Positions 1,355 through 10,642 of a stretch of 18,689 nucleotides of DNA are shown here, in pieces. The notes beneath the pieces were generated by a model. That model saw only the letters and a program-made list of their open reading frames with translations. It searched no databases and was not told the DNA's origin. The position numbers and the translations under genes were made by a program. Source of the DNA: a virus. Position 1 is the first letter of the stretch; every line of letters begins with the position of its first letter. Location of the stretch: the UHGV virus genome UHGV-2027706; one strand, written 5' to 3'.

Positions 1355-1978
1355 TTAAAATTCGAATTGTCTCGCCCGAAGGCTTTTTAACATTGGTCTT
1401 GCCCGTTCGAAAAGGGCGCTTGTCTGGTCAAGTCGCGTCGCCTCCCTGAGTAGTACATCTCTGTTTTTCGTCACCGTGTAGAAGGTTTCAAACGCAATGT
1501 CATACAGCTTGCTCGCGTATGATGAGTTAAGTTCCTTCATTATCGGGTACAGGCGTTTGCAGGTGTCCTGTGCATTCTCCATCTGTACCTGCATGTAGCA
1601 GAGGAGGATGATTTCCTCGTCTGTGAATTGCTGCGCTGGTTGCATGCTGCGAAGTTTCTTTTCGCACTCGATGAAGTATCGGCGTATCTGGCGGCCTTTT
1701 TCGTTACGCTCGACCATCGCCAGTTCTTTGGCTGTGTCGAGGGTGAGGTGGTAGTCCTTGCGGTTGTGACCGCCTCTACCAGATGTTTGCTTTCCCAAAT
1801 TGGAAAGCAAAATATAGTCTTGATTTTCAATGAATTCGTATTCTGAAATGCGATTTGTAATCCATGCCGCAAACACCTTTTTCACGCCTAAAAAAGCATG
1901 CAGATCGCGGGCATTGCAGAGTAGGGCTGTTTCGTTGGATATAGTGCCGTTGAATACGGGGATGAGTTGACTGGTCAT
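1355..1978 (-). CDS. AntA-domain phage antirepressor-like protein (207 aa)
   Basis: ORF with ATG at 1976-1978 and strong SD AAGGAGG 5 nt upstream; the N-terminal half (IPVFNGT...CNARDLHAFLGV...FAAWITNRI...YEFIENQDY) resembles the AntA/AntB antirepressor N-terminal domain from memory. Family assignment unverified. Confidence 0.6.
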   Translation of the reverse strand: MTSQLIPVFNGTISNETALLCNARDLHAFLGVKKVFAAWITNRISEYEFIENQDYILLSNLGKQTSGRGGHNRKDYHLTLDTAKELAMVERNEKGRQIRRYFIECEKKLRSMQPAQQFTDEEIILLCYMQVQMENAQDTCKRLYPIMKELNSSYASKLYDIAFETFYTVTKNRDVLLREATRLDQTSALFERARPMLKSLRARQFEF

Positions 1979-1987
1979 GATGACCTC

Positions 1988-2055
1988 CTTTGAAGTTTTA
2001 GTTAGCGATCACCAGTTAGTGGCTGGTGATCGGGTGTCAACTAGAGCCTTCAAAG
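1988..2055 (-). promoter_or_regulatory. Long imperfect hairpin in the 5' leader of the antA-like gene, abutting its SD
   Basis: Three nested inverted-repeat segments: CTTTGAAG (1988-1995) with CTTCAAAG (2048-2055); TAGTT (1999-2003) with AACTA (2039-2043); CGATCACCAG (2006-2015) with CTGGTGATCG (2023-2032). Confidence 0.4.
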
Positions 2056-2333
2056 ACGCTCCGGGCATATTCCCCTTGCGGGTATTGTATTACGCCTCTC
2101 CACCCGACCTTTGTACGGATGTGACTATGCCAAATTGCAGGCATAAAAAAGCCGCAAAGCTATCGGGTGCGGATGACCGCTTTGAAGTTCTAGTGCGGTC
2201 AGTATGCGATAGCTCTAGCGGATTTGTCAAATCATGTAGTCTTTATCTTGCTGTAAGCCGCGCCATTCGGGCTTTTCCCCAGATTTGGGGGAAACTATCT
2301 GCGAAGTATTCACCTTTGACGGCAAGTTGCAGG

Positions 2334-3059
2334 TTAGCCACGGTTAACCTCCTGCGGCGGTTCCGNNNNNNNNNNTAGCCGCATCCAGTGAGTTGCTTGC
2401 TCAATACCATTACCCGGCTTAATCGTTGCATCTCCGCGCCGAAAGGTGCTTCCGGTATAGCGTGCGGAGCATATTAGCGCTTCAACCAGAGAGCTATCGA
2501 AATTCACCGAAATAAGCACGTTCTGGCCCTTTTCAGGCATTCGATCACTACAGCTTATCCAACTATCCGGAGTTCCCGGAGAGTTGCCATTTACATCGAA
2601 GTTTGGCTCTGCGTCCTGAACCAGGAGGATGTAACCATTCTTGGCAGTATCAAGTTCTAACGCCTCGGTGACGGTGCCGAAATAGCGATTACCTAAATCA
2701 GCATCACAAGTGCTTACATCAATGGAAACTTCCATGCCTTCGATTAATTCTGGCAAGTTGTAAGTTTGGTTTACAGGTTGGCCTCCCTGAAGCATGGCGG
2801 CGCGGTGACACCAGATAATCCAGCCAAGCGCCATATCCCATGCCATGTATTCTCTATCGCCATTTTTCGCCCTGCGGCGATCTACAGATTCCCCGAAACG
2901 CTTCTCCATAAATAATTCATAGGCTGCTCGTTCATCCGATACTGCTGCCAGTGATGCCAGTGCAATTCGTGCCAGTTCCATTTGTTCGCCACGGGTAAGC
3001 CCGTTTTCAAGCGGATTTTTAATGAATAATTCGATACGTTCTTTGGTAATAGAATTCAT
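2334..3059 (-). CDS. Hypothetical phage protein (about 241 aa); C-terminal domain possibly Eaa/DUF551-like; 3' end unreliable because the ORF reads through the N gap
   Basis: ATG at 3057-3059, 1 nt after the stop of the upstream small gene; protein-like composition; C-terminal WISCSDRMPEKGQNVLISV motif recalls prophage DUF551 proteins (from memory). Last 20 codons contain XXXX from the gap. Confidence 0.55.
   Translation of the reverse strand: MNSITKERIELFIKNPLENGLTRGEQMELARIALASLAAVSDERAAYELFMEKRFGESVDRRRAKNGDREYMAWDMALGWIIWCHRAAMLQGGQPVNQTYNLPELIEGMEVSIDVSTCDADLGNRYFGTVTEALELDTAKNGYILLVQDAEPNFDVNGNSPGTPDSWISCSDRMPEKGQNVLISVNFDSSLVEALICSARYTGSTFRRGDATIKPGNGIEQATHWMRLXXXXEPPQEVNRG
2366..2375. 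other. Assembly gap (run of 10 N)
   Basis: Ten consecutive n characters; true length of missing sequence unknown. Confidence 0.99.
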
Positions 3060-3060
3060 G

Positions 3061-3252
3061 CTATTTCACCTTAATCTCAACATTTCGTAGCTTTAGCTCT
3101 ACTGGCAGGTCTGACTTTCCGGTTAATGCTAATGCGAGATTTTCTGGAGTAATGAGAGCCGTTATTGTTTTCCCCATCGACAGACGAATAATCATTCGTA
3201 TCTCGCGATCGTCACATGCTCCCGGTCGAACAATTGAGATTTGTCCGTTCAT
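3061..3252 (-). CDS. Small hypothetical phage protein (63 aa, MNGQISIVRPG...)
   Basis: ATG at 3250-3252 with SD AAGGAG 8 nt upstream, 1 nt after the stop of the Ea22-like gene; I prefer this start to the longer 90-aa track ORF, which has no SD. Confidence 0.55.
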   Translation of the reverse strand: MNGQISIVRPGACDDREIRMIIRLSMGKTITALITPENLALALTGKSDLPVELKLRNVEIKVK

Positions 3253-3253
3253 C

Positions 3254-3844
3254 TCACTCTCCTTTGATGCGAATGCCAGCGGCGCGTGGCACATTAACTT
3301 CCACGATGCGCACAGTTGGTTTGTACATCTCAATCGCTGTCAGCCAGTCAGCGCCAGTCATGCGCTTTTCCGCATCGCCATTAGTCCACTGAACCGGTAC
3401 ACCAATAGCCTTCATCGCGATTTCTATTTCCCCGGCAATGGCGCTTTTTCCGCAACCAGTAAAACCAGAAACAACGACAAGAACTTCACCTTTGGCTGGT
3501 TTTATTTCCCGTGCTTCCAGTTCTGCAATACGCTTACTCCCATCCGAGATAACACCTTCGTAATACTCGCGTTGCTCGTTGAGTTTTGATTTTGCTTCCT
3601 CAAGCTCAACACGCAGCTTCCCTACCGTTAGCGCAATATCCTCGTTCTCCTGGTCGCGGCGTTTGATGTATTGCTGGTTTCTTTCCCGTTCATCCAGTAG
3701 TGCCAGCACTGTGGCGGGAGTGCAATGCTTCATAAAGTCGTTCAGCGCAGTGATTCGCTGGTCGAACGGCATAACCGGTTCCTCTCCAGCGATTTTTGCG
3801 TTCGCTGCCGCTTCTCGCAGCGCCTGTTTGTCAATCTCGCTCAT
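3254..3844 (-). CDS. Ea22-like early protein (196 aa) with coiled-coil middle and a C-terminal P-loop-like motif
   Basis: Strong SD AGGAGG 6 nt upstream of ATG 3842-3844; N-terminus [13 protein letters not shown] resembles ead/Ea22 family proteins from memory; GFTGCGKS at residues 127-134 (nt 3443-3466). Confidence 0.65.
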   Translation of the reverse strand: MSEIDKQALREAAANAKIAGEEPVMPFDQRITALNDFMKHCTPATVLALLDERERNQQYIKRRDQENEDIALTVGKLRVELEEAKSKLNEQREYYEGVISDGSKRIAELEAREIKPAKGEVLVVVSGFTGCGKSAIAGEIEIAMKAIGVPVQWTNGDAEKRMTGADWLTAIEMYKPTVRIVEVNVPRAAGIRIKGE

Positions 3845-8539: not shown

Positions 8540-8710
8540 TACGAAATTTTTGTGATTTATTAATGCAGCGAGATATGATTTTGATATATAAGGAAATTTA
8601 TTTTTGTAAATGCTGCAGATTGGTCTGTAGTTGGAGGGAGTATTGCTGGTGAGTTGGTTCGCGGTTTACCACATTTGCGGCTATTAAATATGGGAGGGCG
8701 AACGTGAGGC

Positions 8711-8738
8711 AAAGAAAACCCGGCGCTGAGGCCGGGTT
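8711..8738 (-). terminator. Putative intrinsic terminator ending the cI / protease-like transcription unit
   Basis: AACCCGGC-gctgag-GCCGGGTT 8-bp stem (8717-8738) followed on the minus strand by UUUUCUUU; lies 13 nt past the stop at 8751-8753. Confidence 0.55.
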
Positions 8739-8750
8739 GTGAGGAATTAA

Positions 8751-8936
8751 TTACAGAGCAAAGAGATCATGCATTAGGTTGCTGTTCATCTGGTGGTTGA
8801 ATTGATACGGCTCCAATTCCTTCTTGATCTCGTTCAGGTGTTGTTCCGCTTTTTTTGCCAGATCGTGACCTTCTTGGATCTGGCTTTCCAACATCTTGTT
8901 GAGAATTTCCATCTCCGGTTGCAGATTCTTCGGCAT
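8751..8936 (-). CDS. Small helical protein (61 aa), out of frame inside the 3' end of the protease-like ORF
   Basis: ATG at 8934-8936 with SD AGAGGA about 9 nt upstream; product MPKNLQPEMEILNKMLESQIQEGHDLAKKAEQHLNEIKKELEPYQFNHQMNSNLMHDLFAL is protein-like and amphipathic. Confidence 0.4.
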   Translation of the reverse strand: MPKNLQPEMEILNKMLESQIQEGHDLAKKAEQHLNEIKKELEPYQFNHQMNSNLMHDLFAL

Positions 8937-9768
8937 TAGCTTTTTCCTCTTTTTGTAGATACGTTGTACAATCAATAACCCTCGGCTTTCCAAATGTTGG
9001 AATGTCACCATTATGAATTTTGTCACAGAAAAGATTATAGAGTATTTCTGTTATACCTTTAGGATGCTCAACACACTTGAAAAGTTCCTTGGCTTCTTTT
9101 CTGTCGATAACAAATCCATGTGAAGGATATGAGGCTATTAGTTTGCCTAACGCCCCTTCTTTTAGGCTGCTTGGTTTGTCTGCTAATCGTTGGCCATAAG
9201 TGATAGCTATACTCATTGCGCGCTGATGTTCACCAAGCTTTATTGGATCTATCTGTGCGGCCATAGGTGCTATCAACGCTTCTGTAAGTCTGGTCGCGAT
9301 ATCAGCAGACATTTTGGTACTTATCTGATTTTCGTATCTTATCTTAACAAGGTGTGAGTTAAACGCTGAAATAGAGCGTTCCTTTAGAGCATCAAGAGCT
9401 GTCATGATAGCTAAACCAGAACTCATCTCACCTATTTCATCGTTTTTTTTCAGTTGGATATCTAATGGCCCAAGCTCCCCCATGTCACCAATAACAAGTT
9501 TATTGGCTGCTATAGCTATTAGTGTACCAGCACTTTTGCATGGTCCAACAACTAAAAGTGTTACCGTTTCATAATGGTGCTGTAGAGCTCTACCTATACG
9601 ATAACCTGCATTTGGATCACCGCCATAAGTAGCAACACAGAAGATAACATTCTCTTTTAATCCATGTTGTGACTTACGTTTCTTGATTTCATTGGTGAGA
9701 TCAAGATAACCATCACGATGAATATCGCCTGTATACACATAAACATCATGATTTTCAATAGAATTCAT
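8767..9768 (-). CDS. ClpP/SppA-fold (SDH / S49-like) putative serine peptidase (333 aa) at the rexAB-equivalent locus
   Basis: ATG at 9766-9768 with SD GGAG 8 nt upstream; N-terminal half has the ClpP-fold signature VTLLVVGPCKSAGTLIAIAANKLVIGDMGELGPLDIQL (compare ClpP GQAASMGAFLLAAG); the last 58 residues are low-complexity and overlap the 61-aa ORF. Confidence 0.7.
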   Translation of the reverse strand: MNSIENHDVYVYTGDIHRDGYLDLTNEIKKRKSQHGLKENVIFCVATYGGDPNAGYRIGRALQHHYETVTLLVVGPCKSAGTLIAIAANKLVIGDMGELGPLDIQLKKNDEIGEMSSGLAIMTALDALKERSISAFNSHLVKIRYENQISTKMSADIATRLTEALIAPMAAQIDPIKLGEHQRAMSIAITYGQRLADKPSSLKEGALGKLIASYPSHGFVIDRKEAKELFKCVEHPKGITEILYNLFCDKIHNGDIPTFGKPRVIDCTTYLQKEEKANAEESATGDGNSQQDVGKPDPRRSRSGKKSGTTPERDQEGIGAVSIQPPDEQQPNA

Positions 9769-9934
9769 TCGTTAAACTCCCTGCTGTGGTTACGATGAAT
9801 GTATTCATGTTGAAGCTAAGCCATAGCGGCTTGTCATCATCACCAATCTGGCGGAATTGACTGTTCATAAATCACAATTGGACTCACCCAAACGTCTCTT
9901 CAGGCCACTGGTTACCAGCTATGTGACGATGAAG

Positions 9935-10642
9935 TCACGAACTTTTCAGCCACTCCCTTGCCTCGATGTCATCCAGATGGCGAGATTGCTTCAGAATACC
10001 AGCCACATACTCCACCTTTGCTACTTGATGATAAGGCAACGTTATTGGCCTGTGGTCCTGGTTGATGCTTGTAAATTGGTATTCTCCGTCTCTGTCATAG
10101 CCAAGAACTTTGATCATGTTGTGTCCTTCAACAGTTCTGACAAACACCTCATCACCCGGGAATACTTTGGTGTTAGGCTCAATGAGTACATATTCTCCTG
10201 ATTTTATTCTGGGCCACATGCTGTCTCCTTTCACACGAAGACCAAAGGCATCTGGATCATCGCTATAAATCTTGAGCCACCCATCGCGCTCTTCGGTCAT
10301 CTCGATGGCACCATCAACACCAAGAATTGCCTCACCAACCACGCGCACTAACCCTTTTTTTAATTTGCCAACAAATGAAAGAGTATCTTCATCATTCGCT
10401 CCATTTAACGAAGTGCCGTGCTGAAGCCAAACAACATCAACGTTTAGAAATTTCGCAAGCGCATTCATTTTTTCCTGACGCGGTAAAGACTCAGCATTAA
10501 ACCATTTGCTAACGCCTTTGGACGAAAGAGAAAGGGCACGGGCTATGGCCATCCCCCTACCATGTTCATCAAGACCAGCTTCTTTACAGGCTTGCGCTAG
10601 CCGCTGGGCGAATTCTTTGCGCACTTTTTCATTCTGAACCAT
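9935..10642 (-). CDS. cI: CI-type prophage repressor (235 aa; HTH plus LexA-like S24 autopeptidase domain)
   Basis: N-terminal HTH (GMAIARALSLSSKGVSKW) and C-terminal S24 domain with GDSMWP serine motif; divergent from cro across a short operator interval; ATG at 10640-10642. Confidence 0.9.
   Translation of the reverse strand: MVQNEKVRKEFAQRLAQACKEAGLDEHGRGMAIARALSLSSKGVSKWFNAESLPRQEKMNALAKFLNVDVVWLQHGTSLNGANDEDTLSFVGKLKKGLVRVVGEAILGVDGAIEMTEERDGWLKIYSDDPDAFGLRVKGDSMWPRIKSGEYVLIEPNTKVFPGDEVFVRTVEGHNMIKVLGYDRDGEYQFTSINQDHRPITLPYHQVAKVEYVAGILKQSRHLDDIEAREWLKSS

Follow-up and report, generated by a model that had tools for sequence, protein, structure and literature searches.

In phage lambda, Rz1 is embedded in the +1 frame of Rz with a start of its own, and the products of the two genes act as a complex. 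The lambda C gene encodes an S49/ClpP-like protease and its 3′ part also encodes a largely helical scaffold protein, Nu3, from an internal start. In the NfeD (1510-N)/stomatin operon pairs and in SppA, the target of a Ser-Lys Clp-fold protease is a helical, coiled-coil protein of the same operon or the C-terminal tail of the protease itself, bound in the active site. Here we analyze an 18,689-nucleotide (nt) stretch of the virus genome UHGV-2027706, a lambdoid prophage immunity region that is called the window below, and its SDH-family Clp-fold serine protease gene. The 3′ tail of this gene very probably carries a second, real coding gene for 61 amino acids (aa), read in the +1 frame from its own start.

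The interval between cI and N of the lambdoid phages is a mosaic hotspot for abortive-infection genes expressed in lysogens, with rexAB in lambda and bstA in BTP1 both cotranscribed with the repressor (bioRxiv 10.1101/2020.07.13.199331). The cassette of the window, made of the protease gene and the nested gene, occupies the same slot as rexAB and bstA, after cI, before a terminator and between cI and N, and it has two products as rexAB has. It differs in lacking homology to either and in having a Clp-fold protease as its putative effector, as opposed to an ion channel or a DNA-binding protein. Phage 434 Hex comes from an open reading frame (ORF) overlapping another gene on the PRM lysogenic transcript of a lambdoid prophage and is made in lysogens beside the repressor (PMC3564112). 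The gene that Hex overlaps is that of the repressor itself, whose RecA-mediated cleavage is the process on which Hex acts (PMC3564112), whereas the overlap in the window is with the downstream protease gene.

The protease gene (8767..9768, minus strand) encodes 333 aa, and the nested gene (8751..8936, minus) runs from an ATG at 8936-8934 to a TAA at 8753-8751. The two frames are offset such that nested codon position 1 is protease codon position 2. The nested ORF shares 170 of its 186 nt with the protease gene (8767..8936, minus), where protease codons 278-333 and the stop overlie nested codons 1-57, and its TAA lies 16 nt beyond the protease TGA. A GAGGA Shine-Dalgarno sequence can be read at 8945..8949 (minus), 8 nt before the nested ATG, which is an initiation spacing. 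An earlier sequence-only reading of the window had pointed out both frames, with the Shine-Dalgarno sequence and the ATG (8934-8936) of the shorter one, and these coordinates and features stand.

The nested product is MPKNLQPEMEILNKMLESQIQEGHDLAKKAEQHLNEIKKELEPYQFNHQMNSNLMHDLFAL, and its predicted tryptic peptides include MLESQIQEGHDLAK and ELEPYQFNHQMNSNLMHDLFAL. AlphaFold2 models it as a single long helix over residues 3-60 with a mean predicted local distance difference test score (pLDDT) of 86.6, in line with the well-behaved amphipathic peptide expected beforehand. With its hydrophobic residues repeated every 3-4 positions, the modeled helix is probably of the coiled-coil forming kind. 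The nested ORF is now and then annotated by some pipelines as a 61-aa hypothetical protein, and RefSeq gives the protease alone in every E. coli genome checked.

Among known arrangements, that of lambda Rz/Rz1 comes nearest, likewise a small +1 gene with its own Shine-Dalgarno sequence and ATG in a larger phage gene on one mRNA. Unlike the nested ORF here, Rz1 lies wholly inside Rz, makes a lipoprotein and belongs to a lysis cassette; in the window, the nested ORF covers the 3′ tail of the larger gene, extends past its stop, has a predicted soluble helix as its product and belongs to the immunity region. The lambda C/Nu3 pair differs in that Nu3 is in frame with C and serves head assembly, whereas the small frame here is out of frame and in the immunity region. 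The nested gene is thus a new and unannotated case of an out-of-frame nested phage gene, without sequence relation to Rz/Rz1, Hex or C/Nu3.

The comparison that carries this finding was made in a close clade, called clade 1, of 38 loci from E. coli genomes, a Klebsiella phage, IMG/VR contigs, metagenomes and an Aeromonadaceae metagenome-assembled genome. Their proteases are 59–100% identical and their tails are of 18 distinct sequences. A +1 ORF of 60–63 aa with a Met at the same place is kept in all 18 distinct tails. Its stop falls 7–28 nt, mostly 16 nt, past the protease stop and just before an intrinsic terminator. The +2 frame over the same stretch has 3–8 stops in these tails.

Openness of the +1 frame is rejected here as evidence, as it is expected from the tail composition, and the comparative substitution pattern is decisive. 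In the pairwise comparison of the 18 tails, divergence at protease codon positions 1, 2 and 3 is 0.19, 0.08 and 0.54 in the body of the gene and 0.47, 0.33 and 0.28 in the overlap. The site that is normally freest in the protease is thus the most constrained one in the overlap, where the nested third position is the most variable. In a sliding window, protease third-position divergence stays at about 0.55–0.6 gene-wide and at 0.22–0.27 from the nested ATG onward, and the drop comes exactly at that ATG.

Amino-acid identity is higher for the nested frame than for the protease frame in 146 of the 153 pairs. An OLGenie-style partition of all pairs gives a nested dNN/dNS of 0.42 (bootstrap confidence interval (CI) 0.32–0.55) and a protease dNN/dSN of 1.01, where NN sites are nonsynonymous in both frames, NS sites are silent in the nested frame only and SN sites are silent in the protease frame only. 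Eight independent sister pairs show 39, 40 and 107 differences at nested positions 1, 2 and 3, with per-site rates of 0.054 for NN, 0.388 for NS and 0.101 for SN. The nested omega in these pairs is about 0.14 (p = 3.5e-30), a value that, like every omega given here, comes from uncorrected distances and a home-made implementation. By these substitutions the nested frame is under strong purifying selection.

The start signals are also kept. The nested ATG is at the aligned position or at most two codons away in 18 of 18 homologues, and a (G)AGGA motif precedes it by 8–10 nt in most of them. The ATG is retained while the two overlying protease codons vary, the first being xAT (x = A, G or C) for Asn, Asp or His and the second Gxx for Ala, Asp, Gly or Glu. 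Upstream of it, a hypervariable linker joins the protease body to the overlap (8937..8990, minus), as seen in the protease alignment and in the upstream DNA of the 18 homologues. No other part of the protease gene varies as much as this linker, which is rich in indels, all in multiples of three, and has a divergence of 0.32, 0.29 and 0.56 at protease positions 1, 2 and 3.

A longer version of the nested ORF, of 91 aa from a GTG (8751..9026), was considered and rejected. Its upstream part is not open in the other homologues, where stops occur 9–14 codons before the ATG, and the openness behind it is confined to the lineage of the window.

The protease tail is under selection of another kind. 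Past the frame junction, it consists of 55 hydrophilic, low-complexity residues, and the AlphaFold2 model of the protease is confident for residues 1-280 and has a pLDDT of <50 for residues 281-333, so that the disordered tail coincides with the overlapped stretch. When the nested peptide is re-encoded with random synonymous codons, the protease frame stays open in only 0–9% of the trials. About 13% of the nested-synonymous point mutations would stop the protease frame, but none of the 97 such substitutions observed in the sister pairs did so (P about 1e-6). The protease omega in the overlap of the eight sister pairs is about 0.53 (p = 0.005).

In the wider family, which has roughly 1,500 members with DNA, nearly all proteases end in a hydrophilic low-complexity tail of 10–70 residues, those of Bartonella, Neisseria, Malonomonas and a Burkholderia phage among them. 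The pattern indicates that the tail evolves almost freely in sequence while its frame is selectively kept open, which suggests that the existence of the tail matters and its sequence matters little. The low complexity of the tail had been noticed from the window alone and is borne out; that selection holds the frame open was unforeseen. Judged by these substitutions on both sides, the overlap is truly dual-coding with both frames functional.

The sequence-only reading had left two options, a small gene embedded in the tail or a fusion of the protease body with a helical tail, made through an indel or a programmed frameshift, and the homologues strongly support the former. A sequencing or assembly indel that split one ORF of body and helical tail in the homopolymer-rich tract has next to no chance of being right. 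Homopolymer runs do flank the frame switch, but identical tail DNA is found in eight independent sources (the window, L004, L006-L010 and L034) and 28 of 5,426 complete E. coli genomes carry at least 80% of the queried stretch. Both frames are kept in every diverged homologue with indels in multiples of three, and RefSeq annotates an intact protease of 333 or 334 aa in the loci examined. E. coli WP4-S18-ESBL-08 and UMNK88 are examples of strains with the identical cassette. We also judge it very unlikely that the helix is a second C-terminus of the protease, attached to the body through a programmed +1 frameshift or through slippage in transcription. This would agree with the +1 frame being open already before the ATG, by at least 9–14 codons in every homologue and by 38 in the window, and with the purine-rich tract with A-runs in the linker. 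However, no slippery heptamer or shift-prone codon context (rare codon or stop) is common to the 45 nt upstream of the ATG in the 18 homologues, within the most variable part of the gene, and what is conserved instead is an ATG and a Shine-Dalgarno sequence at initiation spacing, which a fusion does not need. The T/C tract suspected at the switch is there on the plus strand, but it is the reverse complement of aaaaaGAGGAaaaag, the purine-rich Shine-Dalgarno region, and has no conserved slippery motif. For a stimulatory RNA, there is no Rfam match at the overlap and the local fold is unremarkable (z = -0.54). No protease-helix fusion was found in a word-indexed profile search of 5.8 billion proteins or in a full HMMER search of 1.84 billion cluster representatives; together they returned only the same nested ORF as stand-alone products, mostly of about 60 aa (61, 60 and 108 aa), and one frame-switched chimera of 55 aa. 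This metagenome protein, P0010, follows the nested frame to ..HDLAK and then the protease frame (SGTTPERDQ..) at an A7 homopolymer within the overlap (8850..8856, minus). It fits a loss of two A's in the A7 run, as a natural or assembly frame-switch variant, and tells that slippage-type variants occur. Its switch goes in the wrong direction for the fusion, from the nested to the protease frame, and the A7 run is not conserved, as the homologues carry AGA/AAA mixtures there.

The other alternatives take one of the two frames as idle. In one, the small ORF is a by-product of a hydrophilic tail that, lacking Leu, Ile, Val and Met codons, leaves the +1 frame open, and the low synonymous variation comes from an element at the RNA or DNA level, for instance a terminator, processing site or operator. 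Random synonymous re-encoding of the tail peptide does leave the +1 frame open in 44% of the trials for the window and in 43–100% across the homologues. Distant homologues with unrelated tails also have open +1 frames, and the region adjoins the terminator and the PL/OL side of the immunity region. The constraint nevertheless has a strict 3-nt period, in which nested position 3 is nearly as free as the synonymous sites elsewhere and positions 1 and 2 are constrained. With the identity bias toward the nested frame, the conserved ATG and Shine-Dalgarno sequence and the lack of significant RNA structure, this makes the by-product account highly improbable. In the other, only the small gene is functional and the protease tail is a tolerated readthrough, after the protease stop drifted downstream over a neighboring small gene. 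An all-pairs protease dN/dS of about 1 in the overlap, the predicted disorder of the tail, and the variable overlap extent, with the protease of clade 3 (described below) stopping much earlier relative to the small ORF, all speak for it. Against it are the absence of truncating changes among the 97 substitutions, the protease frame being open in at most 9% of the synonymous re-encodings, the protease omega of about 0.53 in the sister pairs with a matching 0.58 in clade 2, and the near universality of such tails in the family. A tolerated tail is therefore unlikely, and the preferred reading remains a nested gene in a tail that is itself maintained. Altogether, the homologue alignment shows the reverse of a long frame kept with free synonymous variation over a 61-aa frame not kept, which the sequence-only reading had named as the pattern contrary to its proposal.

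Beyond clade 1, the arrangement recurs. Clade 2 has six distinct sequences of Morganella, Rahnella and Pectobacterium types with proteases about 50% identical to that of the window. Its divergence at positions 1, 2 and 3 is 0.18, 0.08 and 0.51 in the body and 0.39, 0.275 and 0.296 in the overlap, with a nested dNN/dNS of 0.40 (CI 0.25–0.60) and a protease dNN/dSN of 0.58. Clade 3 is AT-rich and has AAGGAG, an ATG and a +1 ORF of 57–59 aa that ends just before the terminator. Its small ORF overlaps the protease gene by only 18–41 codons, and a conserved C-terminus, ..RLNFR, lies beyond the protease stop. With such a partial overlap, what stays constant seems to be the small ORF, and how far the protease tail extends over it seems to vary.

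The small ORF, the protease and the terminator thus co-occur in at least three divergent clades, and an open +1 frame of 54–87 codons is present in every other homologue examined, to identities as low as 35%. The cassette ranges from Enterobacterales to Aeromonadaceae, with relatives in Morganella, Bartonella and Neisseria. Two IMG/VR loci of a distant clade with 35% GC, L076 and L078, have a small +1 ORF reaching 49–124 nt past the protease stop, with a common C-terminus ..S(P/A)..M(D/S)RLNFR just before an intrinsic terminator, and hence overlap the protease only in part. In Burkholderia phage vB_HM387 (OR990504.1), a 356-aa homologue with 42% identity adjoins the integrase of a P2-like (Tigrvirus) phage and not a repressor. 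There, too, 61 codons are open in the +1 frame from a Met; with a proline-rich product in a GC-rich genome, this is probably chance.

In Bartonella (GCA_016100335.1, L041 at 1727-3484), an S24 repressor and an SDH protease are paired with few other recognizable phage genes nearby, which hints that repressor and protease may travel as a unit. The +1 ORF there has an ..IPYQ.. motif reminiscent of LEPYQ in the clade of the window. A Klebsiella-phage-type locus (IMGVR_UViG_2907888185_000007) has its protease frame (from 3001) broken after 142 codons, as an apparent pseudogene or a sequencing error, and a truncated 220-aa version of the E. coli protease exists (P0039).

The protease itself is named 'SDH family Clp fold serine proteinase' in RefSeq and matches PHROG 21683 over its full length (E=8e-185). 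Pfam PF01972 scores 29.6 bits on it, below the cut-off of 31.3 and over residues 44-108 only, and a precomputed match to this family is present in most of the homologues. Foldseek relates the modeled body with a probability of 1.0 to the 1510-N/NfeD protease, SppA and ClpP, with PDB matches 3bpp, 6m4b and 4kwb of the NfeD 1510-N and SppA group. The CKSAGT serine motif C77-K78-S79-x-G81-T82, K108, H181 and D222 are invariant across 46 family sequences. By the model, the body of this putative protease has the ClpP/crotonase fold, and the conserved nucleophile motif has Ser79 as its presumed nucleophile.

The NfeD and SppA folds are the closest to the protease body, and those systems run parallel to a protease with a kept tail and a co-encoded helix. 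They differ from the cassette in that the template modeling scores are only 0.4–0.5 at 10–16% identity and in that the partner here has 61 aa and is not a stomatin. As 1510-N acts on an operon partner and SppA binds its own C-termini, the helix would by analogy be a partner of the protease and the tail would be auto-regulatory.

A cI-like prophage repressor gene lies upstream on the same strand (9935..10642, minus). It has Peptidase_S24 (Pfam E=4.4e-16) and HTH_3 domains, matches PHROG 4 (transcriptional repressor), is labeled 'LexA family protein' in RefSeq and is presumed to be the first gene of the lysogenic operon. An operon-closing intrinsic terminator (8717..8738, minus) begins 13 nt past the nested stop; the terminator scan gives an 8-bp stem with 6 GC pairs followed by a T-run. 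The cassette is hence directly downstream of the repressor on the same strand and closed by a terminator. Beyond the terminator are an N-like antiterminator and ral, and cro and cII-like genes run in the opposite direction. The near match of the examined region in the phage collection is limited to the terminator stretch, about 8696-8748.

A Peptidase_S24 repressor is the immediate upstream neighbor on the protease strand in 13 of 18 loci, and these repressors are mutually only 10–25% identical. In other loci, a divergent XRE/ImmA pair adjoins the cassette. The gap between repressor and protease was seen with small ORFs of its own: one of 37 aa with an ATG start (9755-9868, minus), overlapping the protease start by 14 nt, is kept only in near-identical E. 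coli relatives and was dropped, and gene callers put other small ORFs there in the Klebsiella and Morganella loci. Just 3′ of the cassette, E. coli E308 (L002 2912-3131) and HZDC01 (L003 2906-3125) have a hypothetical-protein pseudogene marked 'frameshifted' by RefSeq, where the window has the N-like antiterminator region. Elsewhere in the window, the sole Rfam match is sRNA-Xcc1 (RF02221) at 2020-2109 (minus), over the full-length model with 64.5 bits against a gathering threshold of 53.

We propose that one mRNA would carry the cI-like repressor, the protease and the terminator. Of the ribosomes that start at the protease ATG (9768), most would stay in frame 0 as far as the TGA at 8767, so that the Clp-fold body would end in the disordered, hydrophilic tail of 55 residues. 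Independent initiation by other ribosomes at GAGGA-N8-AUG (8949-8934), in the +1 frame, would yield the 61-aa protein as a product of its own. Placed in the cI-to-N slot, the cassette probably relies on the repressor promoter for its expression in lysogens. The protease would have the helical protein as its partner, be it a regulator, inhibitor, substrate or adaptor, and we infer that the two together are an accessory module of the prophage, whose most plausible role is in phage exclusion or abortive infection.

A fuller model is offered tentatively, as a possibility that the odds do not favor. The cassette would be an unrecognized two-component lysogen module, widespread in proteobacterial prophages, in which the small protein gates the protease as a labile inhibitor, a sensor or a substrate. 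The disordered tail would be required and auto-regulatory, and through dual coding the three parts would be genetically locked to one another. Such a module would serve phage exclusion or abortive infection, or else target the adjacent repressor switch.

Several points weigh against the preferred reading of the locus, the simplest being the ease with which the +1 frame stays open in the re-encoded tails and the home-made calculation of the omega values, both given above. The nested peptide has sub-threshold matches only in Pfam and no match in PHROGs or PADLOC, and the sequence evidence ties it to the protease by locus only and not by a physical link. In PADLOC-DB v2, neither protein has a match at E <= 1, so position is what speaks for a defense role of the protease. 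Full-text literature searching found nothing relevant on an SDH/SppA-like prophage protease or its role in defense. In clade 2, the Shine-Dalgarno sequence is weak. No homology is detectable between the nested peptides of clade 1 and those of clade 2 (hhalign probability 3%), and a hidden Markov model of the clade 1 peptide scores only 1–4 bits on the peptides of clade 2, Bartonella, Neisseria and Burkholderia, which leaves a single ancient origin unproven.

Few out-of-frame nested genes of bacteria and phages have good evidence for both frames, and annotation systematically misses such genes. The nested gene adds a hidden second component to an uncharacterized repressor-linked protease cassette, and a deletion or a C-terminal tag of the protease would hit two proteins unawares. 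Changes for separating the functions are at hand: ATG to ACG removes the nested start and is silent in the protease, and CCG to CCT stops the protease tail and is silent in the peptide. Here, a strongly constrained and structured protein shares its DNA with a disordered tail whose frame is maintained although its sequence is almost free to change, and this bears on the origin of overprinted genes.

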